A stretch of DNA of 64,000 nt from Schizochytrium sp. TIO01 (GCA_004764695.1 SMSO01000008.1:868001-932000), one strand, 5' to 3'. Positions 6,042 through 47,971 are shown, counted from the stretch's first letter. The notes: a model not told the origin generated them from the letters alone. Numbers and translations: made by a program.

Positions 6042-6043
<2 letters not shown>

Positions 6044-6107
<64 letters not shown>

Positions 6108-6539: not shown

Positions 6540-6540
6540 A

Positions 6541-6592
<52 letters not shown>
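6540..6592. repeat. (AAAG)n microsatellite
   Basis: direct reading. Confidence 0.95.
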
Positions 6593-27000: not shown

Positions 27001-28095
27001 TTACATGGAGAGAAGAAGCTTGCCCTTCGTAGCGCCGCTCTCAAGCAAGCGGTGAGCCTCGCCTGCCTGCTCAAGCGGGAGCACTTGCTGTACAGTAACC
27101 TTAACAGAACCGTCCTTAATCCAAGCTACGAGCTGGTCCATACGCTTCTTGAAATCTTCATGATCATCCAGGTAGTCATAGAGTTTCGGACGTGTAAGAA
27201 AGATGGATCCCAGGGCACTGAGCTGCAAGGGATCAATAGGCGGTACAGCTCCACTAGCATTTCCAAAGAGCACCACGGTTCCGAGCTTTCGCACGCAGTT
27301 CATCGACATCTTGTAGGTCTTTGCGCCAACGCCATCGTAAGACACATGAACTCCTTTGCCCTCAGTGGCTTCCTTCACACGCTTCACAACTTCCTCTTCT
27401 GAGAGTTCATCGTACGGAAGCACGAGGTCACAGCCCACGCTCTCGGCAACGGGGACCTTTGACTTGCTGCAAGTGCCGATGACGGTAGCGCCCAGAGCCT
27501 TGGCCATCTGCACGAGCAGCTGGCCAGTACCCCCAGCAGCTGCCTGCACAAGACAAACTTTGCCAGGGCCCAGCTGGAATGTGTTGCAAGCGAGATATTG
27601 TGCCGTAAGGCCTTGTGTGAGCAACGTTGTAAGCACGTCGAGTTCCACGCCCTCGGGAACGCTGTAGACGAAGTTGGAGCTGCAGGCTGTGTATTCCTGG
27701 TATGTGTCAGGGCCAAGGTAGGCCACGCGGTCGCCGACCTTGCAAATGGAGGCGTCCACATCGTTGCCAACAGCAACAACTTCACCTGAGCCTTCGCGGC
27801 CGAGTCCAAATGGTGTGGGTAGCTTGTAGAGCCCAGTGCGGTGGTAGGTGTCAATAAAGTTTACACCTGCAAATTTGTTGTGAACAAGGACCTGCTTCGG
27901 GCCTGGCTTTGGAACTTCGTAGTCCGTGCGAAAGCAGGCATCAAGGCCAGACGGATCGGCCACTACACTATCCAAAACGATAGCCTTTTGCGTGGCAGGA
28001 ATTGAAGAAGCCATGGTTCTCGTGCTCAAAACGCTGTTCGTGCGAATGCTTAGGTTCTGTGCTTGACGCAGTAACTTTGCAGTGCTGGAGAGCAT
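27001..28095 (-). CDS. qor: NADPH:quinone oxidoreductase (MDR family, QOR/zeta-crystallin type), probable mitochondrial presequence
   Basis: AGVNFIDTYHRTGLY, LGREGSG, QGLTAQYL, QAAAGGTG, YDGVG, LFGNASG, TRPKL, HRLLESGATKGKLLL; R/S/L-rich N-terminus before a second Met. Confidence 0.93.
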   Translation of the reverse strand: MLSSTAKLLRQAQNLSIRTNSVLSTRTMASSIPATQKAIVLDSVVADPSGLDACFRTDYEVPKPGPKQVLVHNKFAGVNFIDTYHRTGLYKLPTPFGLGREGSGEVVAVGNDVDASICKVGDRVAYLGPDTYQEYTACSSNFVYSVPEGVELDVLTTLLTQGLTAQYLACNTFQLGPGKVCLVQAAAGGTGQLLVQMAKALGATVIGTCSKSKVPVAESVGCDLVLPYDELSEEEVVKRVKEATEGKGVHVSYDGVGAKTYKMSMNCVRKLGTVVLFGNASGAVPPIDPLQLSALGSIFLTRPKLYDYLDDHEDFKKRMDQLVAWIKDGSVKVTVQQVLPLEQAGEAHRLLESGATKGKLLLSM

Positions 28096-29980
28096 GCAGT
28101 ATTACCTCGTCTGACCTTACAGCGATAGCCGGGTTGTCCAAGAGTCAAGCAGAAGCAGCGGGCGAGCTTGAATTGTCAATGCCTTGCTGCAATTATGGTT
28201 TTGCTGCACAAGTGAGACCACAGGAGGCCACCTCGAAGATTGCCAACATTTTGGATTTTCATTATTACTATCATCCAAATGATAGTGTTTCCACAACTAA
28301 GGCCACTTACTATCAACAATAGTAATAGTAATAATGCACACAAAAACAAGAAAGAAAAGAAAATGGCCTTCATCTTGGAGCACTTGAGGAGATCAGTCTG
28401 AGGATGGTTTGATCTCCTTCGTTAAAGTTGAACGCATAAACTGCGCTTATGAGCCGGTGCACTTTATCAATAAAGATCTAGAGTCGCTATAGTAATATGA
28501 AAGAATAACTCAATCTCCCACAGAAGGAGGTTGAGAAATAGTAGTTCACCGTGTTACTTCGGATCATGCTGAAAGTACGAGCTCACAAAAACAGCATTAA
28601 GACTGGTGAGAAACTTGCAAGCTACTAGGACTTCGTCAGCAGCGACGTGCGGGTTGATAACGGATTCGATGCGGGTGCAGAAGCAGATGTCGTGAAGGTT
28701 CACCCTCATTTCAAGCTTCGATCTTTTATTTAAGCCATATACAAACTAGAATCCGAAATGGTCTTTTGAGGAGGATAATCCGAGAGTCTCGGTGGCTACC
28801 CAGGTTCGCCCGAGGCCCATCCGGGATACTCGGAACATCCCATACATCAAACGGACAGCGCAGAGCATGCGAAGAACATATTAGAAGTTTCATCTGTGCC
28901 CAGTACAATGCTGATTGATCCCAAGTTTGCGTGAGAAACAATTTAGTAATAAATTACATGATAATGCATGCCTTAGTTAACTTAATTTTTTTAACTTTCC
29001 ATACATAAGAAATGACTGCGCAGTTGCAAATCTGGAGATTGTTGGGAACTTCAATGTATTGTTGTATTTGTAACCATGGGAATGGCAAGAGCACTGTAAC
29101 ATCGCGAGGATAGTCGGAATCTGCAAACGATTTGGTATGTATGTACGGAGCCTATTTTGGGACACCGATGAAAGTAAAACAAACAATATGGTATAGAGAC
29201 CCAGGATGGCGGAAACAAAGATTCAGTTCTTACTCAGAGATTTTATTTAGCATGCATAGTAAGACTATTTTTTTAATTTAGGCAAGCAGCTGTAAAGCGA
29301 AGGGCACATTGAGAGTGAAAGCATGTAAGCAAGATCATTGTAATACTAAATGCCGCCTGTTTTGCTGTATTGACCTTGGGTAAAATAAAAGTCTTTCTTG
29401 ACCTGCTTTGGGGGTATTCATACCAAAGGCTCCCTTTGCAGCTTGTTCAAGAAACAGCATTTAGAGAGACCGTAGAGTATATCTTGCCTGACAATCTTCT
29501 TCGTTAAATCTGAAAAACTATTTCCTCGTGGCGTGATTATAAGATTAAAGCGAAGACCTCACCAATAAGGCGCGGTTTTGTTTCTTAATGTATGCCAGCC
29601 AAGGCAAAATGCTATATTATTTAAAGATGAGTTTACTTGACACGCTAGTTGCCCTCACAGATGCTTCAAATAGCTCGGGCCACGTTCATTTACACATTTT
29701 GTTTTAGCTGATTGTTCAAAACATCCCTAAGGTCTCTTGATGCCTTTGAGTCGAAAGTGCTTTACATTGTGTTTACCCACTACCAAAGGACTGAATGCCT
29801 TACCTCTTAGAACCATCCTCGATGCTTCTGCAAGTCTGATCAATTGTAGTTCTTATCGTAAACTGCCAAAGTTCGGTTTATGATAAACCGTCCCATTTGG
29901 GGTAAGATCCTTCTAACCCCCCGTCATAATATATCCTAGAAGTACATACACATGTTCTTGTAATACCGCACCACCCAAGC

Positions 29981-30948
29981 AGAACCAGCTGTTCAACGAA
30001 ATATAGCAAATAAATCAAATCAATTCACTTCTTACTTTCTCAACCAGTTCCAAGCCGACCAAACAACTAAATAGCCCTCCAGAAAGCACTTACTTAGCCG
30101 CTAATTTCTAACTAATTGGCATAATAATCCAAGCTTTATAGCAAGAGAACCAGCTGTTCAACGAAATCGAATAAATATTCAAATCAATTCACTTCTTACT
30201 TTCTCAACCAGTTCCAAGCCGACCAAACAACTAAATAGCCCTCCAGAAAGCACTTACTTAGCCGCTAATTTCTAACCAATTGGCATAATAATCCAAGCTT
30301 TATAGCAAGAGAACCAGCTGTTCAACGAAATCGAATAAATATTCAAATCAATTCACTTCTCATTATTATATCAACCAGTCTCAAGCCAATCAAAGACAAC
30401 GAAATAGCCCTTACAATAAAACGCACTTACTTAGCCGCTAATTTCTAACTAGTTGGCATAATAATCCAAGCTTTATAGCACTAGAGAACCAGCTGTCCAA
30501 CGAAATCGAATAAATAAATCAAATCAATTCACTTCTTACTTTTCAACCTGTTCCAAGCCAATCAAAGACAACTAAATAGCCCTTACAATAAAACGCACTT
30601 ACTTAGCCGCTAATTTCTAACTAGTCGGCATAATAATCCAAGCTTTATAGCACTAGAGAACCAGCTGTCCAACGAAATCGAATAAATAAATCAAATCAAT
30701 TCACTTCTCATTATTATATCAACCAGTCTCAAGCCAATCAAAGACAACTAAATAGCCCTCCATAAAGCACTTACTTAGCTGCTGATTACTAACTAGTCGG
30801 CATAATAATCCAAGCTTTATAGCACTAGAGAACCAGCTGTTCAACGAAATAGAATAAATAAATCAAATCAATTCACTTCTCATTATTATATCAACCAGTC
30901 TCAAGCCAATCAAAGACAACTAAATAGCCCTTACAATAAAACGCACTT
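29981..30948. repeat. tandem array of ~5.7 copies of a 164-175 bp unit
   Basis: units begin AGAACCAGCTGT(T/C)CAACGAAAT at 29981, 30146, 30310, 30485, 30657, 30829; last copy partial. Confidence 0.97.
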
Positions 30949-31007
30949 GATCAGCCAGACACAACAAGATCCCAAAAAACAAACCAGAAATTATCAAACA
31001 TAACAAA

Positions 31008-32504
31008 TTACACATTATCATCAGAAGGCGATACGCGCTGATACGACTCAAAAGGATGTCGATCAGAGTTCAAAGAATCATCAAGAGAAGCAACCGCAGA
31101 AGACGAACGACAACATCCAGCAGACAAAAGCGAAAGAATCAAAATAAGAAGAATGGCAGCAACAAAAACCGGAAACTGCGGCGACTGTAAGGCCAGTGCT
31201 TTGTTGATAAAAGCCTTAAGCTGTTGCACAAACTCTGATTGTGATATCTGAGAATACGAAGAAGCAATCACAGAGATCGCAGTCGAATTCTGAAGAGAAG
31301 ATTGCGAGGTAGGCGACTGCGTCGGCTCGCGAGTGGTGGGACGAACCGTCGGAGATCGAGTCGTAGGCACAGAGGTCGGCGACCAGGTCTGGCCAGGCAC
31401 AGTTGGCGAACGCGTAGGCTCGGGCGTCGGCTCAGCATAACAAATCGAGGTCGATAAATCACAAGAACTTCCATAGACGCAATGATCATCCGCAGCACAC
31501 GGAAACTCCCCGACAGGACACGGACAAGCAGCATCACAATAATAAGCGTTACTGCGAGGACCAGAAGGACAACGATAAAGCATCCTAAACTGGCGAATAT
31601 CCTTCTCTGTGAGCTCAAGACTACCCAACTCAAGCGTTGGATCCGCATTCGACGTGAGCGCAACGAGACCATCCGCTCTAGCAAATGCAGTGCGACTATA
31701 ATGCATAATCGAAAGCAAATCATACGAAGAACCAAGCGAATCTACATTGATCTGCTTATCAAAGTTGGGCCACTTATCTTCTAAAATATTGTCCCAGTGA
31801 ACCGTAACATACTCATCTCTGTCAGGGCGACTCTGCTCATGATAAAAGCCAAGCGCATGCAACATCTCATGCATAATGGGCCTATTGTAAATACAACCAG
31901 TTGAATCATAACTGATCTCCTGCCTTCCTCCCATGCGCCCAACATAAGACCAACAACCGGTCCCGTCTATAATAGAAACATAATCAAGATTGCTCTTGTT
32001 AAGACTCGAATTGCCAATGATCTCCGGCGCCTTGTCAATCGACACAAACGTAATATAAGCCAGCTGCTGTGCCATTTTTCCGAGCGTCTCCTTAATGATC
32101 TGAATCTGCAGCGAGTTAAAGGTGCCCGACTCAATCTCATAAGGAATCACAAGTCTCGGCTGCGCATAACTACTCGCCGGCTGTGCTTCTCTGTAGGTCC
32201 ACAAATACTGATACTCATTAATAAGATCAAGCCGACGCGCACGATGATCAGTCCCCAGATCATCATCATAAATCGCCCATGGCTTTGCTTGCTTTACCTT
32301 TTGATACACAGTATCGCCATAATTGACCTTGAGCTGCGAAGAGCGGATCAGCATGTCTCCCTCAAAAAGCTCAGTCGCCGAAGCAACCGCAGCCGCTTTC
32401 TCCTCATCATAGAGCGGGCTGCTTTTGGGTTGCGCAGACACAGAGACGACATAGCATAGTAGGGTTATATATAGAAGGATACATTTGGCAAATAAGTAGT
32501 CCAT
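31008..32504 (-). CDS. membrane-anchored astacin (M12A) zinc metalloprotease
   Basis: signal peptide, pro-region LFEGDML, GCWSYVG, HEMLHALGFYHEQSRPDRD, Met-turn SIMHY, Cys-rich module, PT/TRSPT stalk, TM helix, short tail. Confidence 0.93.
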   Translation of the reverse strand: MDYLFAKCILLYITLLCYVVSVSAQPKSSPLYDEEKAAAVASATELFEGDMLIRSSQLKVNYGDTVYQKVKQAKPWAIYDDDLGTDHRARRLDLINEYQYLWTYREAQPASSYAQPRLVIPYEIESGTFNSLQIQIIKETLGKMAQQLAYITFVSIDKAPEIIGNSSLNKSNLDYVSIIDGTGCWSYVGRMGGRQEISYDSTGCIYNRPIMHEMLHALGFYHEQSRPDRDEYVTVHWDNILEDKWPNFDKQINVDSLGSSYDLLSIMHYSRTAFARADGLVALTSNADPTLELGSLELTEKDIRQFRMLYRCPSGPRSNAYYCDAACPCPVGEFPCAADDHCVYGSSCDLSTSICYAEPTPEPTRSPTVPGQTWSPTSVPTTRSPTVRPTTREPTQSPTSQSSLQNSTAISVIASSYSQISQSEFVQQLKAFINKALALQSPQFPVFVAAILLILILSLLSAGCCRSSSAVASLDDSLNSDRHPFESYQRVSPSDDNV

Positions 32505-32762
32505 CTTTATCTGATGGTGGTAAAAATTAACCCACCACAGCTATTGTTTGTTTTTTGTTTTTTATAAAAACGAAGACTTTACTACTACTCGGGATAGTGT
32601 AAACAGTATGTATGTGTTAAGTAGGATTTTGATAAAATCGATTGGAATTGATCATATAAGCTTCGAAAACAAAAGACACACAAAATGTCAGACCGAAACC
32701 TATGAGCTAGAAAACAAAGTAAACAAAGCAAACACAGAATCAATTCAGGAGTACAACCAAGC

Positions 32763-33134
32763 ATGACGAGGCCAAGTCAAACGAAGACTGAGACGCCTAG
32801 CGCAAGCAACGTAGCTCGAGACAAAGAAGTCATCAAAGAAAAGGCTACAAAGATTCTCGATAAAATATGCCAGCCCTTGTTCGACGTGGTCCAAGGCCCG
32901 CTACTGATGATGGTCACTGTTTATTTGACCTTATTCGTCGCCGGCTTACACGACCAAACAGTAAAGACGATCCAGATTGATGTAGACCTCAACACAATCT
33001 GCTGGTACCTCTGTCTAACCTGGATCACGGCCTACTGCTCAATCCGCCACCCATCTATCTATTGCCTGATGCTCATGTTATATAACTTGACCGGACACAA
33101 TAGTTTTCTATTCGCCATGTACACAAGCATGTAG
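32763..33134 (+). CDS. small membrane protein of unknown function (GLHD-motif paralog 1)
   Basis: 123 aa, hydrophobic helices, clear similarity to the next ORF. Confidence 0.7.
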   Translation: MTRPSQTKTETPSASNVARDKEVIKEKATKILDKICQPLFDVVQGPLLMMVTVYLTLFVAGLHDQTVKTIQIDVDLNTICWYLCLTWITAYCSIRHPSIYCLMLMLYNLTGHNSFLFAMYTSM

Positions 33135-33432
33135 TGATTAAGTCATCAATACTTTAAACAAAAACAAAAAATATTTCGCCTTAAATTGCTATATAAACAA
33201 ACCAATCGCCCGTTAGATGCAAACAAAAACAACTTGACACTATATTCACCAAAACCTAAACCCAAACCAAAACCAAAAAAAAGTAATAAACTCTACTACT
33301 CATCATCGCAACTGGGCAAAGGAGGCATGCCACCGTGACCGAGCATAACAAACGCTAAACTAGATCGAACAACCGACTTGACAAGTATATCTTATTATTT
33401 GATTTGTTTTGTTTTTTCAAAAGCAAAACATA

Positions 33433-33873
33433 ATGGCCCCAAAGAGCTTGCCGGTTCGCTTCCTCGAGAGCCCCGCGCCTTGCTTGGCGTCGGCTTGGCT
33501 AGCCTTGTATATTGTCGGCTTACATGACGCAAAGCTGGCGAGTTTTACGGTTGACTTGGACTTTACTCTTGTTGGCTACTTTGTAATGGCGAGCTGGATG
33601 CTGGCTGACTTTAGACGCATGAAGACAGTCTTTTATGCATTCTCACTAGCAGCCTTTGCACTGAGCGGTAGTGTGATGATCCTTTTCGGACTTGCAGCTG
33701 CCAGTATCGCGCTGATCTGGAAGCTTATTGATAAGTGGATCAGATATGAGATAAAAGACAAGAGAACCGAATACTCTACGTTGTATCAAGCTTTTGGTTC
33801 AAGACTCTCTTCTGCTCAGACAACAGAAGATAGTTCAACAACATCATCAACAGCCGCCGCCGCCGCCGCCTAA
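33433..33873 (+). CDS. small membrane protein of unknown function (GLHD-motif paralog 2)
   Basis: ATG at 33433 in A-rich context (146 aa); LYIVGLHD..VDLD motif shared with the upstream ORF. Confidence 0.75.
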   Translation: MAPKSLPVRFLESPAPCLASAWLALYIVGLHDAKLASFTVDLDFTLVGYFVMASWMLADFRRMKTVFYAFSLAAFALSGSVMILFGLAAASIALIWKLIDKWIRYEIKDKRTEYSTLYQAFGSRLSSAQTTEDSSTTSSTAAAAAA

Positions 33874-33996
33874 AAATAGCACGCAGATGGGTTTCAAGAA
33901 AGCAGTCGCCTGAACGAATACTTATATAAACTAACTAACTATCAAACATTTGTCTTATACATTTTACAGATCAGAAAGCAAGAGGTTCTTCGATCA

Positions 33997-34064
33997 ATCA
34001 GGTTGATAAACTAGAAGGAGAATACGAGCTATCAGGTTGATAAACTAGAAGGAGAATACGAGCT
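33997..34064. repeat. perfect 34-bp tandem duplication spanning the stop codon of the LAGLIDADG-dUTPase ORF
   Basis: ATCAGGTTGATAAACTAGAAGGAGAATACGAGCT at 33997-34030 and 34031-34064. Confidence 0.95.
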
Positions 34065-35513
34065 CTCAATAAACTCAATGCCTGGATTCGAACGCCGGAC
34101 CATCATGTAACACGCAACAAACGGAAAGTCTGGCAAAGACGCTGTCCTGGAGCCAAGTCGAAGCAAAGGAATCAGGATCTCCTCCGTAGACGAAGGGTCA
34201 ACCACGATCGTCTCCTGAATCATGCGGTAGCCTAGAGAATATAATTGAGGCGCGGCAATGATCTCAACATGAAAGCCAAAAGGTGGCGTGAAGCGTAAAC
34301 CTGTCGAACAAATCAGCTGGTCGTCTGAAATGCGAGTGTGAACACCGGTCAAGCTCAAGTGATACATTGGCGAGCTGGCATGCTGCTTAAACGGAAGCAC
34401 TGCAGTAGGCTCGAGTCGATGGACCTGGACACTGCCAAACTGCTGGCGCGAACTGCCAATAATCTTGTACAATAGAGGGAAAGTCTTGCCGCCCGGCAAT
34501 GCGCTCGTGCTTGGATCGAATCCTCTATAAAAGAGACCCAGAAAGTTATAGGCATCCTTGCCGAGCAAGTGCACGCGGTACTTGTTGGTGATTAGCGAGG
34601 TCTCGAGAGGAAGAAGCAGGGTGCGAAACGCGGGCATCAGCGCCGGCGTCAACTGGATCGTAAGCTCCGGCTTGGCAACATCGATCGCTCCTGCGGCTTC
34701 TATGTAACCCCGCCAATATTCGCGAATGCAGTATTCCAGGTGATAGCCATCAAATTCGTACGAAGGTGCGCGATGCATGAAGCGGTGATGTGCAATTGTT
34801 CTAACAATTTGCCAATTATGAATCTGAGCCTCGTAGATGATTGTGCCCGAGGTGCTGCGCTGTTCATAAATATGGCCATCGTAGCCACAGGCGCCCCAGG
34901 CTGATCGTTCATCCCAAAGCTTGCTTCGTCGCAGAGAGTCAATGACTGAGCGCAGGTCTTCGAGCCGCGACCTGTCGCGCACACTAAAGACCAAGCTATC
35001 GCGCTTCACCTGTGCGGATGCCGTCGCGAAGCCGAGCACATAGAACTCTGCAGTTTCTGACTCTGCAAAACTTCTGGATGACGGTCTCAAGTTGTTTCGA
35101 GGTGACCTGCGACTTGGCGAGGCAACTTCCATGTCCTCCTGGTCATCATGGTCTTGGCTATCCTCGCTGTCGAGATGCTGGTCGTATTGCTGATCGATAG
35201 TAGTCGTTTCCTGTTGTTTGTTTTCTTGGTGGTTTTCCTGGACGATTACCCATCTTCGGTGATCACAGCCGTTTGATTGATCAGACGCGCAGCAGCAGGG
35301 TTCTGAACATTTGGGTCCAGCGGTAGCGCGAGATCTAGGCAGATAAGGCTGGCTGCAATCGACTTGAAGCTGCGTTTGTTGTTGCCGCATGCCTGGTGCA
35401 GACGAGGGCCTAGGCGTCTCAATGATGCTTTCAATCATCAGTGCGTCCGAATCAATTTCATGTTTCTGTGCCGCTTGGCTAGACGACCGTGTTGTAACTC
35501 CGATCGGCGCCAT
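34032..35513 (-). CDS. degenerate double-motif LAGLIDADG domain fused to a C-terminal inactive dUTPase-like domain
   Basis: FYVLGFATASAQV and YWRGYIEAAGAI resemble LAGLIDADG helices, followed by GKDAYNFLGLFY; C-terminus AVLPFKQHASSPMYHL..STGLRFTPPFGFHVEI..GYRM..IVVDP..ILIPL follows dUTPase motif order with catalytic residues lost. Confidence 0.7.
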   Translation of the reverse strand: MAPIGVTTRSSSQAAQKHEIDSDALMIESIIETPRPSSAPGMRQQQTQLQVDCSQPYLPRSRATAGPKCSEPCCCASDQSNGCDHRRWVIVQENHQENKQQETTTIDQQYDQHLDSEDSQDHDDQEDMEVASPSRRSPRNNLRPSSRSFAESETAEFYVLGFATASAQVKRDSLVFSVRDRSRLEDLRSVIDSLRRSKLWDERSAWGACGYDGHIYEQRSTSGTIIYEAQIHNWQIVRTIAHHRFMHRAPSYEFDGYHLEYCIREYWRGYIEAAGAIDVAKPELTIQLTPALMPAFRTLLLPLETSLITNKYRVHLLGKDAYNFLGLFYRGFDPSTSALPGGKTFPLLYKIIGSSRQQFGSVQVHRLEPTAVLPFKQHASSPMYHLSLTGVHTRISDDQLICSTGLRFTPPFGFHVEIIAAPQLYSLGYRMIQETIVVDPSSTEEILIPLLRLGSRTASLPDFPFVACYMMVRRSNPGIEFIESSYSPSSLST

Positions 35514-35800
35514 GCTTATTTGTTGTTTGGAATCTGGTGACCTGCTTCAGAATTAGAGTTCTGCCGTCGAGCACAAAAGTCTCTGGAGTAACATAAAATC
35601 AAAAACTATAAACTAACAGACGATCAACAACAACAACAACAACAACAAAAAAACGTTGGGCGGCTCTAGACTGTCTGACCCTCCCCCATACATGTTTTAA
35701 AATAATAGTAATCATAATAATAATAATAATAGTCATGTTGACCAAATAAAGTCTGTACACAGCGCAGTTGATTTATAGTTTTATTCTGTTTTTTTTTTTT

Positions 35801-37675
35801 TTATGATTCTGTTTTCTCATGTAGAGCCCTGATCAAATAAAGTCTGTACATTTTGTTTGAGCGGCTCGGAAACAAAGCTGGGTCTACGCAGATCTCACCT
35901 CGAGCATCCTGAATCATGTACAATAAATCTGTCATCGAATTTGACTTTGCATAATCATAATGCATAGCACACAAATAAGAAGTAAATGTCAAGCGTCGGC
36001 AGCCATTCACAACACAGGTCTTCGTCTTACAATGTGTCTTGCACAATGAATGACGCTGCGCAAGCCGGAAACAGCCCCGTGTCTTGCAAAGATATTTATC
36101 ATTGTAATAAATCATCGTGCTCAACACTTCAATCTGCTGTGCAATTGTGTCTGTCTCGCGAAGCTTATCAACCGCCTCGCCACGACGCCTCTTGTTTCGA
36201 AAATAATGTGTGCTCAAGGCAACGCAAGACATGTAAGTCAACTGACTCTTTAGATCGAGCTGCGAAGAGATGCTAGTATCTTTCATATCCGATCGATTGT
36301 TAGAAGGACTCGGCACACGAATCGAGCTTAGAACACTGTCGCTGTCTGAACTGCTATGATTAGAATCTTCAGCGGGCGTTCGAGCGATCTTTTTAGACTT
36401 GGTTTTCTGCTCAGTAGAGAGTTTGCGTTTACGAGTCTTGCGAGACATCTCTAGCTGAGAGACTCTTTCGTCGACATATCGTATGATTGTTTCAACCAGA
36501 CTCTCCTGAGGTAACTTTTCAGTGCAAGCTGCCTCTTGTTGCTTAGTGCTGGTTTTTGGAACGACATGAGAATGCTGGTCTTGACCGGTCGCGCTGTGTT
36601 CGCGGCCAAGCTCAGGTTGTTGTTGTTGTTGTTTTTGTTGCTGTTGTTCAGGTTGTTGTTGTTTTTGTTGCTGTTGTTGTTGTTGTTGAGGTAGCTGTTG
36701 TTGAGGTAGCTGTTGTTGAGGTAGCTGTTGTTCAGGTTGCTGTTGTTCAGGTTGCTGTTGTTCAGGTTGCTGTTGTTCAGGTTGTTGCTGTTGTTCAGGT
36801 AGCTGTTGTTGTTGTTGTTCAGGTTGCTGAGGCGCTTGTTGTTGCTGAGGCGCTTGCTGTTGTTGCTGAGGCGCTTGTTGTTGTTGAGGTTGCTGTTGTT
36901 GAGGTTGCTGTTGTTGCTGAGGCGCTTGTTGTTGCTGAGGCGCTTGCTGCTGCTGAGGCGCTTGTTGTTGAGGTTGCTGTTGTTGTTGCTGAGGCGCTTG
37001 CTGCTGCTGAGGCGCTTGCTGCTGCTGAGGCGCTTGTTGTTGTTGAGGTTGCTGTTGTTGAGGTTGCTGTTGTTGCTGAGGCGCTTGTTGTTGCTGAGGC
37101 GCTTGCTGCTGCTGAGGCGCTTGTTGTTGAGGTTGCTGTTGTTGTTGCTGAGGCGCTTGCTGCTGCTGAGGCGCTTGCTGCTGCTGAGGCGCTTGCTGCT
37201 GCTGAGGCGCTTGTTGTTGCTGAGGCGCTTGCTGCTGCTGAGGCGCCGCCTCTTGTGGCGCTCGCTCCTGTGCGTTTATAGTGTTTGCCGACTTTGTCTG
37301 AGCGATCGGTGGTTCATCCTGTTCGCTCGATCCAGCAGCGCCGACTTTATCTAACTCGCGCGCCGCCGGTAGAGCACAGCCCTGCTCACACGACTCGCGT
37401 ACTAGACTGCTGTTGCTATCTCTGCTGTTGTCGCAGCTATCTCCGCTCTTGTCCGGTTCTTGTTGGTCACCGAAGTCAGGAGTATCAGGTGGATCAAGCA
37501 ATGGATGTTCACTGCCCGACTTTTCTTGTGCCGAGCCTGTAAATACGTGAGTATTCAGAAATCGATGCGCTATCGACGTAGAGCTTGTCTGAGGCGTGCG
37601 ACGCCTTGACAAACTCTGAAGCAGCGTCTCCAGAAGCTGCACACTATCACTGCCGCTGCTGTTATGATTGTTCAT
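35801..37675 (-). CDS. polyglutamine-rich putative nuclear regulator with two WRKY19-like Cx4Cx9Cx2H zinc fingers
   Basis: 624 aa; (APQQQQ)n tract, NLS-like RKTRKRK, CKTRGC-x9-CKTH and CVVNGC-x9-CAMH. Confidence 0.8.
   Translation of the reverse strand: MNNHNSSGSDSVQLLETLLQSLSRRRTPQTSSTSIAHRFLNTHVFTGSAQEKSGSEHPLLDPPDTPDFGDQQEPDKSGDSCDNSRDSNSSLVRESCEQGCALPAARELDKVGAAGSSEQDEPPIAQTKSANTINAQERAPQEAAPQQQQAPQQQQAPQQQQAPQQQQAPQQQQAPQQQQQQPQQQAPQQQQAPQQQQAPQQQQQPQQQQPQQQQAPQQQQAPQQQQAPQQQQQQPQQQAPQQQQAPQQQQAPQQQQQPQQQQPQQQQAPQQQQQAPQQQQAPQQPEQQQQQLPEQQQQPEQQQPEQQQPEQQQPEQQLPQQQLPQQQLPQQQQQQQQKQQQPEQQQQKQQQQQPELGREHSATGQDQHSHVVPKTSTKQQEAACTEKLPQESLVETIIRYVDERVSQLEMSRKTRKRKLSTEQKTKSKKIARTPAEDSNHSSSDSDSVLSSIRVPSPSNNRSDMKDTSISSQLDLKSQLTYMSCVALSTHYFRNKRRRGEAVDKLRETDTIAQQIEVLSTMIYYNDKYLCKTRGCFRLAQRHSLCKTHCKTKTCVVNGCRRLTFTSYLCAMHYDYAKSNSMTDLLYMIQDARGEICVDPALFPSRSNKMYRLYLIRALHEKTES
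36612..37243. repeat. coding minisatellite (APQQQQ / PEQQQ / LPQQQ) with ~159-bp higher-order period
   Basis: GAGGCGCTTG(T/C)TG(T/C)TGCT units; the block at 36901 recurs at 37060. Confidence 0.9.
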
Positions 37676-37828
37676 CTTGTTTATAAGTTTCCGCTCTGCT
37701 ATCGCTCTGCTACCGCTCTATCTCAGTATTTCTATTATTAGTTTTTATTTATTTTAAAACGCAAAACATTTTTTATTTATTTTAATCTATTTATTTGAAA
37801 ACCCCCCCCTTTTTTTTAAGTATTTAAA

Positions 37829-39790
37829 TTATTCCGCTTTAACAAAACCAAAGACCGAGTCGAAGTACTGGTTGTCTTTCTCAAGATGGTCCACGGACGC
37901 AGCTACTTTCGACATACCAAAGTCAATCAGGCGAACCGTCTCTAGTTCATCAATTACAAAGTTACGCAACTGAATGTCACGATGCGCAACACCACGAGCA
38001 TGAACAGCATCAAGCGCCGCGCGTGCCTTTTGCTTAATTTCCATAGTGATCTTACCTTTGTAAAAATCTAGAGACGTGCCATGACAACTCACCGCCAAAA
38101 TTAAATCATTGAACACGTGCCGGCCGCCGTAAAAATAAAAGGGAACATGCAAACCCCATAAAGGGCGCAGTGCTTCGTAAACTCGCATCTCATTCTCAAA
38201 GCTAGCGGTCGCCGCGGCAATGTACTCCTCAGAGTCCTCCTTGGGCGTCATCACCTTGACAATAAAATCAAGCCCACACGCTGTCGAATGCTGTGCGAAA
38301 GAATACTGACCCTCAGAATAAGTATGGAGCACATCATAAAGGCCGCCACGGTACGGAAATTCCTTCATCTTGAACGGCAGGCGATTCTGAAGCATCTTCA
38401 AAAGATGCGACAGATCGTCAGTCTCCTTTGTATCAGTTTCAGCTGCAGTCAAATCAGGATCAGCCGAATCAGAACTTGAGTCTTGCGTAGACACGGCTTC
38501 TGTATCACCACGCAGAGACTGGCGAAGATTGTTCACTTTACGATTAACAATCTTAGACACAGACCTTGCCATTTGTTTAAGCTTGTCTACTTTAGTTGTT
38601 TGCTTGTCCAGCCTTCCAAGATAATGATTGTACATATTCATCCACTCTTCATACTCTTTTAGATTTTGAGAACCTTTACCAGGAGTGGTATTTGCAATCT
38701 TTTCAAGCATCTCTTTTGATAGCTCGGTCCGGGATCCGTTTCGCAAAGCGTTGATAATGAACGCCGCGTAAGCAAACTTGACAGTCCCTAGTCCTTGATC
38801 TGTGCCATAATAGCACTTTGAGACCATCAATTGATTATCCGCAGTCAGCTTCAGAAACCAGGTGCGATCAGTGGTACTCAGGACCCCGTAACAAACAAAC
38901 GCGCGGATCATATATACGTAAATCTGTATGATCGGAGTCAGATATCTGTTATCGCTGCTCGATTTTTTAGGAAATTTAAGATTGAATTGCTCCCAATACT
39001 TGACCAGATCATCGATAACAACCTCTTCCTCGTCGTCGTCATCATTATCCAGGTCTATTACAACCTTATCACGCGGCAGTCCAACTGGAAAAACATTTGG
39101 CGCTTTTTGTTCATGGACTATAAAGATTCTCAGATTGCTGTTTCTAGAATGATACCCACCGATGCCACACGTATCAAGTCCAGCCTCATCATTCGGATCA
39201 ACATATCGCATCAACACACCATCTGGTTTGAATCCTGGATGGCTATTTTCTTTAACAAAAGCTACACATTGACGTTGCAGATCAGGAACTGCATAGACCA
39301 CTTTATCAATGAAAGGAGTCATAAACTTCTCTTTTAAGGCATCCAGTGAAAGACCTTCATCAGGATTCAAACCTTGGCGATTGTAATACGTTTCGAAATA
39401 GTCTGGGTCAACGTATATGTTGAGATATGGTTCTTGCCCGTTTGCGATCTTTTCAAATTGCATTTCAGTTTCGAAATTCTCCCAAGCGACCAATGCAGAT
39501 GGGCTAATATTCAACTTCTGTTGCTGGTTTCTCGAACCATCTCGTGACTGGGTAAACCTAGTTGTCGGAGACGACAGGCCACTTTGATCCCGCCGGTCTT
39601 GGCTAGCTCTAGACTGTGTTCGAGGTCTCGAGGTAGGAGGTCTCCATTGTTCAACAAGCGGCTCTTCGAGCAGAGGATTCATGCATATTGCGTAATAAGC
39701 AACTTGCAAGGCACGTTGGGCAATCCTGGCCTCGGGGGGCTTCAAACGGTGGTCACCACCGTCTCTGTTGTTGTTCCAGGATCTCTTCAT
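37829..39790 (-). CDS. PD-(D/E)xK restriction-endonuclease-like domain plus C-terminal kinase (Crinkler/CR-effector-like architecture)
   Basis: KPDGVL..FIVHEQK..IIQIYVYM..YGVLSTTDRTWFL (REase); IVKV, FENEMRVYEAL, HRDIQLRNF, IDFGMS (minimal kinase); first ATG at 39790 (track start is TTG). Confidence 0.8.
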   Translation of the reverse strand: MKRSWNNNRDGGDHRLKPPEARIAQRALQVAYYAICMNPLLEEPLVEQWRPPTSRPRTQSRASQDRRDQSGLSSPTTRFTQSRDGSRNQQQKLNISPSALVAWENFETEMQFEKIANGQEPYLNIYVDPDYFETYYNRQGLNPDEGLSLDALKEKFMTPFIDKVVYAVPDLQRQCVAFVKENSHPGFKPDGVLMRYVDPNDEAGLDTCGIGGYHSRNSNLRIFIVHEQKAPNVFPVGLPRDKVVIDLDNDDDDEEEVVIDDLVKYWEQFNLKFPKKSSSDNRYLTPIIQIYVYMIRAFVCYGVLSTTDRTWFLKLTADNQLMVSKCYYGTDQGLGTVKFAYAAFIINALRNGSRTELSKEMLEKIANTTPGKGSQNLKEYEEWMNMYNHYLGRLDKQTTKVDKLKQMARSVSKIVNRKVNNLRQSLRGDTEAVSTQDSSSDSADPDLTAAETDTKETDDLSHLLKMLQNRLPFKMKEFPYRGGLYDVLHTYSEGQYSFAQHSTACGLDFIVKVMTPKEDSEEYIAAATASFENEMRVYEALRPLWGLHVPFYFYGGRHVFNDLILAVSCHGTSLDFYKGKITMEIKQKARAALDAVHARGVAHRDIQLRNFVIDELETVRLIDFGMSKVAASVDHLEKDNQYFDSVFGFVKAE

Positions 39791-40044
39791 CGTAGGGGCT
39801 TTTATCTGGTGTTCGGGTACTGCTTCGTTCAAGTTGTTGATTTGTTGGTTTGCTGACTTTGTTTAAGTTTTTGGTTTGCTTATTTTTTTTGTTGTTGTTG
39901 ACTTACTAGTAAAATAAATAAATAATAATAATAATAGGACTGTATCAAAAATTCATCTGAAAACAAATAAAAACTTAAGTATTTGTAACTAAAAAACAAA
40001 GAACAAAAGAGCGGCGCGCGCCAACATATAGTTATTATTTATTA

Positions 40045-40599
40045 TTAATAATGTTGTAGCACAACGCGCACACCAGTTTGATCGTTCTGATTGATCGTGT
40101 GCACATACTCGATGGTTTTCTCGGTCACGCGAGATTGAAAGTCAATCTTGACGTCGGTCATGAGATCGTTCCTCTCGTTCAGCATCTTCAAGAAAGGCTC
40201 TAACGAGCGAACCTCGCTGCCACAGCACTCATCGACTGCCAGAATGTACGCATCAAGCGGCTTTGCCAAGTCAAGACATCCAATCATGTTTTGGAAACCT
40301 TCAAGACTACAGTCCTTGAGCGCACCTACAAATGCAAGACTCAAGGGCGCACTGCGTACAAGTGCGTCATTCAGTTGCTCACATTTCCACAGGCATGAGG
40401 TATCAGAACGAAGCGTTATCTTCCGGACATAGCAGCCCGACATACCAAGCGGACTATAGAGCAAAGCGTGCTGCCAAGCATGCAATGCCTCAAGAGTCCC
40501 ATGCGATCCAATCTTAAACTCCAGATCGATTTGGTGATTACCTATTATATAAGGCAACAGTCTGAATGGAAACTGATCATCTTGAGTCTCGAAGCGCAT
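40045..40599 (-). CDS. hypothetical protein (orphan)
   Basis: 184 aa from the first ATG, globular-looking composition, flanked by AT-rich intergenics; start uncertain. Confidence 0.55.
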   Translation of the reverse strand: MRFETQDDQFPFRLLPYIIGNHQIDLEFKIGSHGTLEALHAWQHALLYSPLGMSGCYVRKITLRSDTSCLWKCEQLNDALVRSAPLSLAFVGALKDCSLEGFQNMIGCLDLAKPLDAYILAVDECCGSEVRSLEPFLKMLNERNDLMTDVKIDFQSRVTEKTIEYVHTINQNDQTGVRVVLQHY

Positions 40600-40877
40600 G
40601 ACCACTCGCGCAGGTTGTTCGCTTCGCTCATTGTGCACTCTCCGATTTGGTTATGTTTTATTATTGATTTTTTTATTATTTTGTTAATAAATTAATCATG
40701 ATGGTTTACGTGTGTTTAAACAATGACGAAAAAGTTCGTAGATCTGATGCTAGTGGTTATCGCTAGGTTAGCATTATATTCATTTTAGATCGGCGATTTG
40801 GACTTGAGTGCGTCGATTGATTTTTTTAAAAATTAATTATAATTTTGAAAGTACACACTGATTATATTGCGTAGATG

Positions 40878-41058
40878 GCAGTGAGTCGAAGAAAAAAGAG
40901 TAGCTTGTACTGGTTCTGCAGTGAAACGAAGAAAAAAGAGTAGCTTGTACTGGTTCTGCAGTGAATCGAAGAAAAAAGAGTAGCTTGTACTGGTTCTGCA
41001 GTGAATCGAAGAAAAAAGAGTAGCTTGTACTGGTTCTGCAGTGAGTCGAAGAAAAAGC
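40878..41058. repeat. tandem array of ~4.5 copies of a 40-bp unit
   Basis: GCAGTGA(A/G)(T/A)CGAAGAAAAAAGAGTAGCTTGTACTGGTTCT, period 40. Confidence 0.97.
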
Positions 41059-41061
41059 AGA

Positions 41062-41249
41062 GCTAGCTTTGTCTATTGGTCAATAAGTGAGTTGTGCAGC
41101 CACAATAGCCAATTTGGAGAACAGCCAATATGGGATTTAAAGAACAGGCTAACTGGCTAATAGTCAACTATGGGGTAATAGCAATAGAGAATAAATCAGA
41201 ATAACATGGAGCTCTCTGTGGCTAGCTTTGTCTATTGGTCAATAAGTGA
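41062..41249. repeat. 29-bp direct repeat pair
   Basis: GCTAGCTTTGTCTATTGGTCAATAAGTGA at 41062-41090 and 41221-41249. Confidence 0.9.
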
Positions 41250-41319
41250 TTCCCACAATGGCCATAGAACTGTCAGTTAGTAATAGGACAAAAATGAGAT
41301 TAAAGCCGAGAGAAACTAT

Positions 41320-43524
41320 TTATTTATGATGATTGTGATGTTTAGGCTTGGAAATAACTTTTTTATGAATAACATGAGGATGTGGAGCTTGCTCAATGAC
41401 CAAAGGAGCTTCCTCGTCAAAACGCTGTTCGGTTTGATCAGACGGCGGGCGACAACATGCCAAACAACAACAAAATAAACAAGGAACACCAATCGAAACA
41501 GAAATAATAATATAAAGGCGAGTGAAACTGACAATCGTTGTACTCTGCGGTGGAATATATTCATCATGAATATAACAAGTTAAGTTAGCACCCGTAACAG
41601 AAATACCAGCCGTAACTGCTTGTGCATCTTGCTCTACATTTGCACAATAATCAGTCGTCGAGTCCTGATCATCGGTGAAATTGAGCGCAGAACATACCCG
41701 CTTAAACCTAAAATTATTAAGTAAAACAGTTTGCTGATCAGACATACCATTCAACTGCTGGAAAGGTGATGTCTCTATCGATAAAGCTTCCCAATTGACA
41801 TACAAAATACAATCACCCAGAGAGGTATCAATCATAAGAGCACGACATGCCAAAGGATTCTCTGAACAAATGTTCTCACAAAGCTCCAAAAGACTCGACT
41901 GATATTTCTGTCCTATATATCCTGTGCGATGACGCAGAACATAAGCAGTCTCAAGATCGCAAATGCGAGGCGAAACAGGCGTGTAAGCACTCGCTATCGT
42001 AGCATCCGCCTGAAAAACCATCGTGTAATCATAACGAGCATAACAAACACTCGAAATGACCGTCTCTTGACCAAGCGTAGAAGACACCAAATGCCACGTA
42101 TCTCTCTCAGGCTCCGCAATATACTGATAAAGCTGAGCAACATTCCACGTTCGATCAGCCTCATAAGGCACAGACCCAACAAACAAAGAACCAAGCTTTT
42201 TGAAATTAGTCCAAAGCTGACTAAACGAATTTACATCAAAGTCCAAAAAGGCCTTTACAGAAGTATAAAGCGTACACTTTGCAAGAACCGTGTCTCGATC
42301 ACCAAAGGTAACCATGAAACCCTTGCACATTGCTTTATGCTTCTCACAGTAGTCCCTACAAAAGGCAACCTTTTCATCGTCCATCTGAAAAATGTTCGAC
42401 ATCGCCATTGCCTGAGCCTGCGCCTGCGTAAGCCCATCAGTCAAATTAAAGGTAAACGAAGCACTAATTGGCGCAGAGTAAGAAGCCGAAGTACAGCGCG
42501 CACCACCAGTATATAGATAAACAGATTCAGTGTCACTATAAGGACTTACAACGCCAGGCTTTGTGACGCAAGTAATACTCGTATCTGCAACATTTGAAGT
42601 CAACTGGCGAGCACTGCGCCAAAGCTTGATTTTTCTTTGCTGATAAGTGACCTCGCGATATGTATAAGCATCAAGCGCAGCGACCTCCGAACGAAGCAAA
42701 AAGTTGCAGCGCGTATGCAAAGAACTGTTTTGGCGAACAATATACTCGACGCCTGCACACCAATCATTTGCACAACATAAAGCGCTACATTCATCAAAGA
42801 CTTCAATATTCGTCGAAGGCACATCAAGAGAATAAACATAACCATCTTTCACTGCGCCCATACAATTACCCATTCGCACGGTCTTGAGCTGAACGCGGCA
42901 CCCAGATGTCGCAAACTCTGCATGATCATTCGGATTGTTTTGATTTGTACTAATTCGATAAGGTTGAACTTGGTCTGTTGTACACTGAGCAAGTTTGCTA
43001 GCGTCGACGCAGTCAAGCAACTGTGCAGCCTCACTCTGCTGAGGCCACGCGAGATCTCCTTGGCCTGCATTCAACGCATCGTCAGTCAGCAGCTCGCAGT
43101 TGCCATCGTAGATGTTAAATCCTAAGCAAAAGTCATTATTATATCTGCACATTGCTCTACACTTGACGGTGTCCCAAGTGAAGTCTTCGGGTCTGTCCAG
43201 CACCATGGTTGTGCCTGTCGAAAAAGGACTGATCGCTCTGACTCCCTCACCCACCGAGCAGAAATCATCGACCGAGCTTGCTAAGGAGTCTTGTTCACTG
43301 TCATCACCATCTGCGCAATCGACCAAAAAGATAGCACTCTGCGAAGCATCCACCTCGAGCTCGCTCGCCAGCGATGAACGCAAGAAAATCGCATAATTGT
43401 CATCATCAGTCATGCCTCTACTCAAATGAATCTTGCCAGCTAAAGTCGTTAGATTCCAACTGGTTGAAGCGGGCAAGCTCTGAGGCCAGCTGTAGTCGTC
43501 ACCTGCCCACGAAGGCATCATCAC
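41320..43524 (-). CDS. Cys-rich type I surface glycoprotein with four PAN/apple-like modules; probably 5'-truncated
   Basis: CRAMC..CLGF..CELL; CSALC..CAGV..CNFL; CRDYC..CKGF..CTLY; CENIC..CRAL..CILY; many N-glycosylation sequons; TM followed by CCCLACC; no signal peptide. Confidence 0.8.
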   Translation of the reverse strand: MMMPSWAGDDYSWPQSLPASTSWNLTTLAGKIHLSRGMTDDDNYAIFLRSSLASELEVDASQSAIFLVDCADGDDSEQDSLASSVDDFCSVGEGVRAISPFSTGTTMVLDRPEDFTWDTVKCRAMCRYNNDFCLGFNIYDGNCELLTDDALNAGQGDLAWPQQSEAAQLLDCVDASKLAQCTTDQVQPYRISTNQNNPNDHAEFATSGCRVQLKTVRMGNCMGAVKDGYVYSLDVPSTNIEVFDECSALCCANDWCAGVEYIVRQNSSLHTRCNFLLRSEVAALDAYTYREVTYQQRKIKLWRSARQLTSNVADTSITCVTKPGVVSPYSDTESVYLYTGGARCTSASYSAPISASFTFNLTDGLTQAQAQAMAMSNIFQMDDEKVAFCRDYCEKHKAMCKGFMVTFGDRDTVLAKCTLYTSVKAFLDFDVNSFSQLWTNFKKLGSLFVGSVPYEADRTWNVAQLYQYIAEPERDTWHLVSSTLGQETVISSVCYARYDYTMVFQADATIASAYTPVSPRICDLETAYVLRHRTGYIGQKYQSSLLELCENICSENPLACRALMIDTSLGDCILYVNWEALSIETSPFQQLNGMSDQQTVLLNNFRFKRVCSALNFTDDQDSTTDYCANVEQDAQAVTAGISVTGANLTCYIHDEYIPPQSTTIVSFTRLYIIISVSIGVPCLFCCCLACCRPPSDQTEQRFDEEAPLVIEQAPHPHVIHKKVISKPKHHNHHK

Positions 43525-43729
43525 AGTTAGATTCAGTTCCTGCTCTTAATATTTATTTTGTATTGATCAACGAGTTCCAAGTCTGCTTTTGGATACTTCG
43601 ATTCTCTCGCGCGTAGACGCGTTGAGGCGCATTGAAGGAGCGTGGCGGGAGTGCTTCAAGAGTTCTTGCGACCAAGCAGAAATCAATCTAGCTCTTTGTC
43701 GAGTCTGTGTGCTTGGGTGGGAGCGAACG

Positions 43730-45043: not shown

Positions 45044-45072
45044 CCCGACCCTGATATCAAAGCAACCTCTTC

Positions 45073-45130
45073 AAATCACTGATTCCTTTTTATGTTTCTC
45101 GAAATCACTGTTTCCTTTTTATGTTTCTCG
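45073..45130. repeat. 29-bp tandem duplication in the AP2M 3' region
   Basis: AAATCACTG(A/T)TTCCTTTTTATGTTTCTCG x2. Confidence 0.85.
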
Positions 45131-45846
45131 CTGCTGACCATACGCTTTGCCTCTGCTACTCCAGCTTAAGCCATCAATGTTTTCAGGATTCTTATGAAAA
45201 CTGTAAATGCAGCTTTTCAGTTCTACTAGCTAGTAGTATGCACCTATAAACTGCAAAATAACATCAATTTAATACTCTTGATGAATTTCTACAAATAAAG
45301 ACACAATACAAACCATTTTCTTTCCACAATAACCCTGGAGAAGTATCCTGCAAGACCACAAAGTTTGCTCTAAAGGAGTTCCTCCAATTTACTGATGATT
45401 ACTTATGCTTGGTCTCAGTTTGTTGGTGACAAATTCCCTGTGCAATATTGACCTTTTCCCTTCTTGATGCCCTTCTGGTCAAATACAGGCCCTCACTCTC
45501 GCTTAGACATAGAACAAGGCGCAGCAATGGTTGGAAAAAGCCAACAAACATGCTATTCCTAGCTTAGAGTTAGTCAAAGTAGGAAGTTAGATAACAAAAG
45601 GTTAATAAAAACAAAGTCGCAGTTAGACTTTTCGTTTACACGCCCAGACCCCAATTGAAGTTGCCCTCGGCCACCAAACTAAAAACAATTGAGCTTTCGC
45701 CACTCAAACGCAAGTGCTCTGCAAAGGTGCCTTTCAGGGAAAAGCTGCGGCACTCTAGAGGCTGTGCTTTACGAACTAATATATTGATTGAGACAAGTTG
45801 ATTTCTGTCGTTCGTTGTTGATTTCTAAGAAACAACTTAGGCGAAC

Positions 45847-47358: not shown

Positions 47359-47971
47359 TTCATTTGCACGGCACTGTCTTCCCTCTACTCCCAAGAATAG
47401 AAAGCGCTAATTATGGATGAATTACTTGAATCGAAAACGGAAATAGGCCGCGTTTAATGAGCGACTATTACACAGCCCAGCAGCCTTGCAAGAAAGAATG
47501 AAAAGCACCAATGACGACTAGGACCAATTTCTATTTTCTTGTTGGTTTCTAATTAGCGTCACTACACACAGCAAAGTACGAAAATAAATTAAAACACTCA
47601 AAAAGCGACATTTGAGAGCTGATTTTCAGCTTCAAATGTTGTGTAATTATTTTTACAAATGTTAGAAAAAGTAGCAAGAATGATTGCCTTGCAATTCTAG
47701 ATTATTCAACTACAAAGTCTCATGGAGGGAATTAAGGCTTGACATTGGCAAGACATAAATAGCAGTAGCCAAACCCTATTATCTATTTACATAACAGTGT
47801 ACGAGAAGAGGCCAAGAAATCGCAAAACCGCTGTTGCTAACATGATCATCTAGGTGCCCTAAAACGAGTATCTATTCCATTGCAGCCACAGAGGACGTCA
47901 GCTTGCTTTGTAATGAAGAAGATCGTTGACAGATAATAAAGTCTGTGGCAAGTTTCTTTCTTTTAAATCTA

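Follow-up and report, generated by a model that had tools for sequence, protein, structure and literature searches.

A 64,000-nt stretch of the Schizochytrium sp. TIO01 genome (SMSO01000008.1:868001-932000, hereafter the window) carries a 13,553-bp insertion at positions 29981-43533, between a quinone oxidoreductase-like dehydrogenase gene and the gene for the adaptor complex mu subunit AP2M. Filled and empty versions of this site exist, and host bases are neither duplicated nor lost. The insertion likely represents part of the genome of a Soporavirales-type mirusvirus, and homology and gene order indicate that the donor was very probably a relative of AurliV-1, the mirusvirus episome of Aurantiochytrium limacinum, and different from AurliV-1 itself. 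One of its genes encodes a nuclease-kinase that differs between strains more than tenfold more than the neighbouring pieces do, in its N-terminal and nuclease half, the kinase being nearly fixed. As an explanation of the whole, it is probable that a polymorphic mirusvirus fragment was patched into a chromosome break, carrying a hypervariable nuclease-kinase predicted to be a DNA-cutting toxin checked by its own kinase. Integrated mirusvirus DNA in thraustochytrids and gene exchange between these viruses and their hosts, including the kinase family, have already been published. Our searches of the open literature (outside subscription papers and bioRxiv supplements) turned up neither this insertion nor a toxin-antidote role for mirusvirus kinases; we report an endogenous fragment, mapped to the base and segregating, from a mirusvirus relative that is likely new, with the diversifying nuclease-kinase as an unreported twist.

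The limits of the insertion are fixed by the empty-site junction in public assemblies of two strains. Across the right junction four sequencing runs were compared (X2, X10, X15 and X18), and two of them show the empty site: X2 and X10 each hold one short unitig whose loose part is window 29951-29980, followed by 43534 onward. Since these unitigs join 29980 to 43534, the insertion comprises 29981-43533. An earlier sequence-only reading of the window had placed a foreign cassette at 29980-43545 and advised looking for an empty site; its location stands, its exact ends do not, and the empty site has been found. The two faults that this reading had feared are absent. An assembly chimera is rejected, because contigs of other runs cross the right junction, one in X15 running without a break from 41289 to 55000 and one in X18 covering 41362-43637, and the cassette contigs of X2 and X10 extend 30 nt into the right flank. 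A fixed cluster of host orthologs is rejected because a second version of the site lacks the insertion.

The cassette contig has about half the depth of the flank in both X2 (18.2 and 30.7) and X10 (11.5 and 27.2), and in X10 the depth of the empty junction (15.1) and that of the cassette sum to the flank. Heterozygosity is the simplest reading of these values. Three points weigh against it: in X2 the empty junction (25.9) and the cassette together exceed the flank, the half depth could instead reflect a mixed culture, and ploidy is unsettled, the published statements consulted on it being in disagreement. At least half of the words of 37400-47300 are present in 20 of the 24 runs listed, which come from ten studies, nine of them besides the possible source; the list is ranked by the share of matching words and a strain that has only the empty site would be missing from it, so no allele frequency follows. 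Five of the 20 holder runs were compared in detail, at the right junction as above and over the kinase region in X2, X4, X10 and X15; only the right junction and the cassette beyond 37300 are covered by this comparison. With its filled and empty alleles open to comparison, the insertion documents, while still segregating, a capture from an additional mirusvirus lineage in a protist of industrial use.

Gene density rises abruptly within the insertion, as the sequence-only reading had remarked. Eight ORFs (open reading frames) starting with ATG lie at 31008-43521, six of them on the minus strand (Table 1), and coding density is 77%, against about 29% outside, where only the six long host ORFs count. 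The seven spacers are short (153-720 bp) and A/T-rich (27-37% G+C, versus 35-48% in six host spacers). Overall G+C is no different (44.3% inside, 44.4% outside); that of the AurliV-1 episome equals that of its host (PMC12606086). The proportion of G+T at four-fold sites is 0.61-0.73 in five of the six minus-strand cassette genes versus 0.48-0.54 in six host genes, a weak sign only. The two tandem arrays and the truncated terminal gene of the earlier reading are also real; the polyglutamine (polyQ) gene carries a repeat in addition to the arrays, and residue 2 of the terminal surface ORF aligns with residue 330 of a 1045-aa homolog (P0003), which begins with an N-terminal hydrophobic leader.

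The astacin, kinase and pseudo-dUTPase assignments made in that reading are borne out. The astacin has a leader, the HExxHxxGxxH motif at 212 and the Met-turn at 265, so both marks of the M12A family are present, followed by a Cys-rich part, a proline/threonine stalk and a C-terminal membrane anchor. The pseudo-dUTPase has 433 matches at E<=0.001, those scanned being dUTPases, and retains only 16 of 42 conserved columns; of motifs I-V of active trimeric dUTPases, the D, RSS, G-I-D..Y and C-terminal RG.GGFGS columns are replaced or missing. The LAGLIDADG half of its label is backed only indirectly, by a PHROG endonuclease match at E 0.15, the LAGLIDADG Pfam domain in one of 13 scanned dUTPase-type matches and the published annotation of the AurliV-1 homolog. 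The proposed PAN surface protein finds no support in Pfam, which assigns no family to the cut surface ORF or to its homolog, and 'PAN-like' is a putative label. No family was assigned by the scans to the two small hydrophobic ORFans or to the 184-aa ORFan. The dUTPase is degenerate in the window and, by eye, in AurliV-1 ORF534. In AurliV-2 ORF790, by contrast, the motifs are retained, the C-terminal one among them, and the inactive form may serve some other purpose. A 34-bp tandem duplication lies across the stop codon of the pseudo-dUTPase gene (window 33997-34068), and a 29-bp direct repeat lies behind the surface gene (41062-41090 and 41221-41249).

The nuclease-kinase was analysed domain by domain. 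Its C-terminal part is a protein kinase (Pfam Pkinase, above cut-off) with K512, D605, N610 and D623 as kinase residues, in keeping with the earlier assignment. The middle domain, modelled alone from nine sequences (predicted local distance difference test, pLDDT, 65; predicted template-modelling score, pTM, 0.73), matches BpuSI best among the restriction nucleases (Z 10.2, root-mean-square deviation 3.9, 149 aligned), then DrdV (Z 9.1), EcoR124I HsdR (Z 7.5) and Vibrio HsdR (Z 7.4), which represent type IIG and type I enzymes. Most of the top 25 structure matches are PD-(D/E)xK-fold nucleases, ranks two and three being mitoribosomal proteins, and Foldseek with the nuclease model returned nothing at E<=0.001. 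The nuclease residues are D190, E227, K229 and, after the catalytic lysine, QxxxY at 289-293; D190, E227, K229 and Q289 are invariant in eight of eight aligned homologs, and D605, N610 and D623 are kept in the six homologs that have the kinase. The middle domain is predicted from its model to fold as a PD-(D/E)xK restriction nuclease with its catalytic residues kept, and hence as a DNA-cutting enzyme. The full-length model is poor (pLDDT 47), and its matches are kinases and two Pandoravirus DUF5898 proteins. In published tables the AurliV kinases carry the PANTHER tag PTHR37171, 'Meiotic Drive Suppressor Kinase', three in AurliV-1 and two in AurliV-2 (PMC12606086), and 10.64898/2026.07.28.741200 and 10.1101/2023.06.15.545109 treat the family as plain kinases. 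A full-length version 93% identical is on record as an MMETSP transcript. In Hondaea fermentalgiana three gene models (P0156-P0158) contain the nuclease domain; one of these is partial and another bears the name gut esterase.

Between strains, DNA differs by 2-5% in the nuclease-kinase gene versus 0-0.8% in the neighbouring pieces, a variability that the sequence-only reading had missed. Two runs link the variation to the insertion site. In X10 the N-terminal half of the kinase gene occurs as a single copy, at cassette depth, with 76 differences in 1514 nt; the neighbouring cassette pieces have 8 in 3118 nt (Fisher p 7e-29). In X4, a single contig runs from the start of the polyQ gene across the spacer and all of the kinase gene; it shows 45 differences in 2576 nt versus 1 in 928 adjoining nt (p 3e-5), and the indels listed for it are an 18-nt deletion that keeps the frame and a -1/+1 pair that cancel each other. 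Three full-length protein versions (window, P0154 and P0159) differ pairwise at 44-48 of 653 positions, about 7%, and 62 of the 68 variable positions fall in residues 1-400. Compared with their own records, the neighbours are almost unchanged: the 184-aa ORFan is 100% identical, the surface protein 99.7% and the pseudo-dUTPase 99.4%, the last to a copy in another assembly. For P0154 and for the record of the 184-aa ORFan, the longest contig listed is 3702 nt in each case. The same partition is found in an AurliV-1-like pair (P0155/P0163), 11-19% different in the N-terminal half and at none of 182 kinase positions.

Close copies of the gene occur in the same genomes. At 80% likeness, at least three close versions are found in X2, the listed pieces having 0, 49 and 22 differences; a kinase piece some 84% alike is present in X2, X4 and X10, roughly at the depth of the flank in the first and last of these; and in X2 and X10 sister contigs at about cassette depth join the start of a polyQ gene to a kinase end through another spacer. 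A 109-aa piece (P0004) is 69% identical to the pseudo-dUTPase over 101 aligned residues. From these sister pieces and P0004 it follows that related viral segments exist elsewhere in the genomes of these runs. The start of the polyQ gene (window 37460-37834) has paralogs in X2, X4, X10 and X15. A 9012-nt contig of X2 matches window 42737-42813 and 43075-43106 and represents a further version of the surface gene; its 30 loose letters, translated by hand, differ from both the window gene and AurliV-1 ORF802, and the X2 strain may hold another related viral segment or episome.

On balance, we favour exchange with close sister copies elsewhere in these genomes as the source of the hypervariability, the differences among them having been shaped by selection for new specificities. 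Among the rows listed, 30 of 33 distinct locus-linked substitutions are non-synonymous, which rejects omega<=0.5 (p 5e-4). Part of the data is less clear on selection and exchange. The same 33 substitutions do not reject neutrality (p 0.05) and were drawn from 40 rows, chosen by the tool, out of 352; for mosaic tracts in the three proteins, a runs test is significant on raw sites (p 4e-5) and loses significance once neighbouring sites are merged (p 0.41).

The layout of the protein recalls the Spok proteins of Podospora and Fusarium, in which killing is due to a PD-(D/E)xK nuclease with QxxxY and protection to a C-terminal kinase; their best HHpred match was a Vibrio vulnificus protein (PMC6660238). 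Spok homologs have been proposed to hold dispensable chromosomes in Fusarium (PMC12693581). Shared features are a PD-(D/E)xK domain with QxxxY followed by a short kinase, a length of about 650-700 aa and families of divergent copies (PMC6660238, PMC12693581), and the Vibrio HsdR structure matches both nucleases. The window protein has the catalytic D, E and K, the QxxxY after the lysine and the C-terminal kinase with its catalytic aspartate, and N-terminal helices are predicted in it at pLDDT <50, where Spok has a coiled coil. Set against the likeness is the Spok cysteine cluster before the kinase (C-x3-C-x13-C-x5-H-x7-H), which is missing, with no Cys between 326 and 505; therefore the window protein is not filed as a Spok and is only predicted to work like one. 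It also sits in a viral, stramenopile setting, and is likened to Spok by its layout. Crinkler toxins, too, commonly couple a restriction endonuclease (REase) to a kinase, and their toxicity has been attributed to the REase (PMC5289972). In the window protein no secretion header is seen: residues 1-140 give no Pfam match and a low-confidence model, where Crinklers have a ubiquitin-like header domain. The protein differs from Crinklers in being encoded by a virus-derived segment.

By analogy, there is very nearly an even chance that the window protein works like a fungal Spok, with the nuclease as toxin and the kinase as antidote. The nuclease half would then be a DNA-cutting toxin that the kinase of the same protein restrains, and on a mirusvirus episome the protein would be an addiction module. 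A predicted intact nuclease before a kinase, together with the pattern of variable nuclease and fixed kinase in both virus-like paralogs and a chromosomal locus, makes addiction a concrete hypothesis that, if true, could explain how mirusvirus episomes persist. The decades-long persistence of mirusvirus genomes in thraustochytrid cultures has been called unclear (10.64898/2026.07.28.741200), and ParA and Fic have been suggested to contribute to it (10.1101/2023.06.15.545109). The words 'toxin', 'addiction' and 'restriction' do not occur in PMC12606086, nor do 'toxin' and 'nuclease', as word beginnings, in the 2026 co-infection preprint (10.64898/2026.07.28.741200). In a wider scenario, which we think rather unlikely, mirusviruses would carry single-gene Spok-like toxin-antidote proteins that make the host dependent on the episome and that evolve into incompatible specificities; one such gene, once captured, would segregate as a multi-allelic selfish or protective locus, a virus-born candidate gene drive in a stramenopile. 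That toxin-antidote action has pushed the spread of the insertion, as a chromosomal driver, we think unlikely.

Somewhat below an even chance we place the plainer account that the insertion is neutral viral debris, a passenger fragment whose kinase gene varies only by gene conversion from sister copies and encodes an ordinary viral signalling kinase without a toxin role. One of its genes is cut and another catalytically degenerate, close kinase paralogs are present in the same genomes, and the listed substitutions are compatible with neutrality. Debris of this kind, allele-specific and duplicated, is known from Acanthamoeba, where giant-virus insertions are partial, non-mobile and accompanied by related partial copies elsewhere; those insertions, however, are subtelomeric, silenced and decaying (PMC12210455), whereas here the frames are open, a kinase version is transcribed and one gene is diversifying. 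Mere decay also fits poorly with the nuclease-kinase itself: its frame is open in three of three full-length versions and the listed X4 indels keep it, though 4.5% of random substitutions would be stops; its nuclease catalytic residues are invariant; and variation avoids the kinase both at the locus and in the AurliV-1-like pair. Should the toxin reading fail, a well-bounded endogenous mirusvirus fragment remains.

Alternatively, the host may have domesticated the segment, the nuclease-kinase or the surface proteins protecting carriers against incoming mirusviruses or their toxin, with allele diversity kept by balancing selection from circulating viruses. The open frames, the transcript of the 93%-identical version, the concentration of differences around the nuclease and the presence of the insertion in nine studies besides the possible source, among the runs listed, would all suit such a role. 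Carriers need not be free of such sequences, however, since X2 has the cassette plus a related surface gene on the separate 9-kb contig, and we judge domestication improbable.

The donor was traced through four of the eight ORFs that have homologs on AurliV-1, two found by search (the cut surface gene and the kinase) and two judged by eye (the astacin and the pseudo-dUTPase). Among the candidates scored, the only non-self match of the cut surface gene is P0003, 39% identical over its residues 330-1040, which corresponds to AurliV-1 ORF802 by length and, by eye, over the first 400 residues (PMC12606086 Supplementary Data 1). The best non-self matches of the kinase are 41-43% identical and near-identical to the AurliV-1 tandem ORF459/460/729; Hondaea proteins come next, and AurliV-2 counterparts are more distant. 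ORF535 (astacin), ORF534 (LAGLIDADG-like and degenerate dUTPase) and ORF802 are consecutive reverse-strand genes of AurliV-1, and the window keeps their order and strand. With protein identity of about 40%, the donor is a related but different virus, and AurliV-1 itself is rejected. HK97 capsid, triplex, portal, terminase and PolB genes are not among the eight ORFs in the family scans, and all coding space of the insertion is accounted for; without a capsid or polymerase gene the insertion is a fragment, and a complete mirusvirus provirus (giant endogenous viral element) is rejected. The sequence-only reading had suggested that part of a large thraustochytrid DNA virus was captured here, and the empty site and the four AurliV-1 homologs, three of them in order and strand, agree with it.

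Beyond three-gene order and strand, the insertion shares with AurliV-1 the nuclease-kinase family, present there in three tandem copies, and a host-like G+C (PMC12606086; 10.1101/2023.06.15.545109). It differs in protein identity, 39-43% where computed, in four extra ORFs between the collinear genes, and in scale: AurliV-1 is a 298-kb circle, and here a 13.6-kb chromosomal fragment lacks virion and replication genes. AurliV-2 (LE-Chr15) is likewise mirusvirus DNA in a host chromosome, with astacin, LAGLIDADG-type dUTPase, PAN and WRKY19 proteins and two PTHR37171 kinases; in contrast to the small polymorphic piece between housekeeping genes found here, it is a near-whole genome between ribosomal DNA (rDNA) and LORE-TEARS repeats at a chromosome end, and the 64-kb window has no rRNA. 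Several points tell against the assignment. The astacin and pseudo-dUTPase matches were made by eye, without alignment; four of the eight ORFs have no traced homolog; the virus group is deduced from accessory genes, the fragment having no mirusvirus hallmark; and mirusviruses, skiaviruses and hosts exchange accessory genes (10.64898/2026.07.28.741200). Motif searches of the AurliV tables, over the first 400 residues of each entry, gave no convincing homolog of the two membrane ORFans or the polyQ protein. Three IMG/VR scans (pseudo-dUTPase, kinase and kinase alignment) returned no relatives, and metagenomes scanned for part of the 172-bp repeat and with the kinase alignment gave no match.

It is very unlikely that the donor was a skiavirus (an SmDNAV-like nucleocytovirus) or that the insertion is a chimera of several viral inserts. 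Skiaviruses do carry genes of mirusvirus origin and have a kinase family in common with mirusviruses and hosts, and four unassigned ORFs stand between the three collinear genes. The order and strand of those three genes and the kinase nevertheless match AurliV-1. Like the mirusvirus hallmarks, the skiavirus markers MCP, A32 and VLTF3 are absent from the eight ORFs.

How a mirusvirus fragment came to lie in the chromosome may be read from its ends. The left end falls inside a 172-bp repeat unit and the right end inside a gene whose frame is open up to the junction. Against the empty site, host and element share no bases at either junction, and the two 300-bp ends resemble each other no more than chance (scores 17 and 20, null median 18). 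In repeat copies 2 and 3, the four bases just before the point of the left break recur one base out of register in the host flank and may represent microhomology. Neither terminal inverted repeats (TIRs) nor a target-site duplication is found at the ends, and the family scans show no transposase, integrase, recombinase, helicase or other mobilising gene among the eight ORFs. From the breaks inside a gene and a repeat unit, the lack of shared bases and the lack of a mobilising gene, we infer the capture of a broken piece at a double-strand break. A host chromosome break would have been patched by end-joining with a broken piece of a mirusvirus genome, in the nucleus, where mirusviruses replicate. 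Probably this happened a single time, and the segment, unable to mobilise itself, has been passed on as an allele ever since.

The TIRs, target-site duplication and mobilising gene of a DNA transposon or Polinton-like element are all missing, and this candidate is rejected. Helitrons have TC...CTRR ends in an A-T target; the ends and target here (29980/29981 and 43533/43534) do not match, and a Helitron is rejected. So are LORE-TEARS subtelomeric repeats, which have 366-529-bp units beside rDNA; the unit here is 172 bp, with no Rfam match in the window. The new self-mobile cargo element that the sequence-only reading had offered as its second choice is scarcely credible: the junctions are clean and sister segments with a polyQ gene beside a kinase exist elsewhere in X2 and X10, but its ends lie inside a gene and a repeat unit, the hallmarks of mobility just listed are lacking, and in four of four runs compared no other flank is joined to the right end.

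The cut surface gene abuts the region upstream of AP2M. None of the listed holder runs is recorded as RNA; X15 and X18 are guessed to be, and genes cannot be ranked by contig depth. In X18 the contig over the cut gene ends 104 nt into the host flank, with no cover between AP2M and HAT1, which fits transcription from the host side; the divergent AP2M promoter region of the host may drive this gene.

Table 1. Features of the insertion and its flanking host genes (window positions).
Feature	Position	Strand	Basis or remark
Quinone oxidoreductase-like zinc-binding dehydrogenase gene, host flank	27001-28095	-	Family scan
Whole insertion, presence/absence polymorphism	29981-43533		Junction unitigs, depth
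172-bp tandem array, 5.7 copies	29981-30948		Downstream of astacin gene, cut by left junction
Astacin (M12A) metalloprotease, 498 aa	31008-32504	-	Pfam E 3e-41; homolog of AurliV-1 ORF535 and AurliV-2 ORF428, by eye
Small hydrophobic ORFan 1, 123 aa	32763-33134	+	Paralog of ORFan 2, BLASTP E 3e-10
Small hydrophobic ORFan 2, 146 aa	33433-33873	+	Paralog of ORFan 1
LAGLIDADG-like and degenerate dUTPase, 493 aa, low-complexity N-terminus	34032-35513	-	Homolog of AurliV-1 ORF534, by eye
PolyQ protein, 624 aa, two C-terminal CxxxxC..CxxH (WRKY19-like) fingers at 530 and 554	35801-37675	-	Zf_WRKY19 E 0.37, below cut-off
Nuclease-kinase, 653 aa	37829-39790	-	Homolog of AurliV-1 tandem ORF729/460/459
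ORFan, 184 aa (o184)	40045-40599	-	Identical protein in two other records
40-bp tandem array, 4.5 copies	40878-41056		
5'-truncated Cys-rich membrane-anchored surface gene	41320-43533	-	ORF from ATG 43521, frame open up to junction
Adaptor complex mu subunit (AP2M), host flank	43730-45043	+	Family scan; upstream region abuts cut viral gene

Elsewhere in the window, positions 1-16300 form 16 kb with no ATG ORF of at least 150 aa, many microsatellites and no Rfam match. An 814-aa protein is encoded at 16340-18784 on the minus strand, presumably resembling a class C G-protein-coupled receptor with a periplasmic-binding-type ectodomain. A 2322-aa multi-membrane protein at 47972-54940, also on the minus strand, we take to be calpain-like, of the DEK1 kind; a piece of its gene (49565-49600) has a paralog in four of four runs compared. 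The host flank further contains a perfect 24-bp palindrome at 58714-58737.

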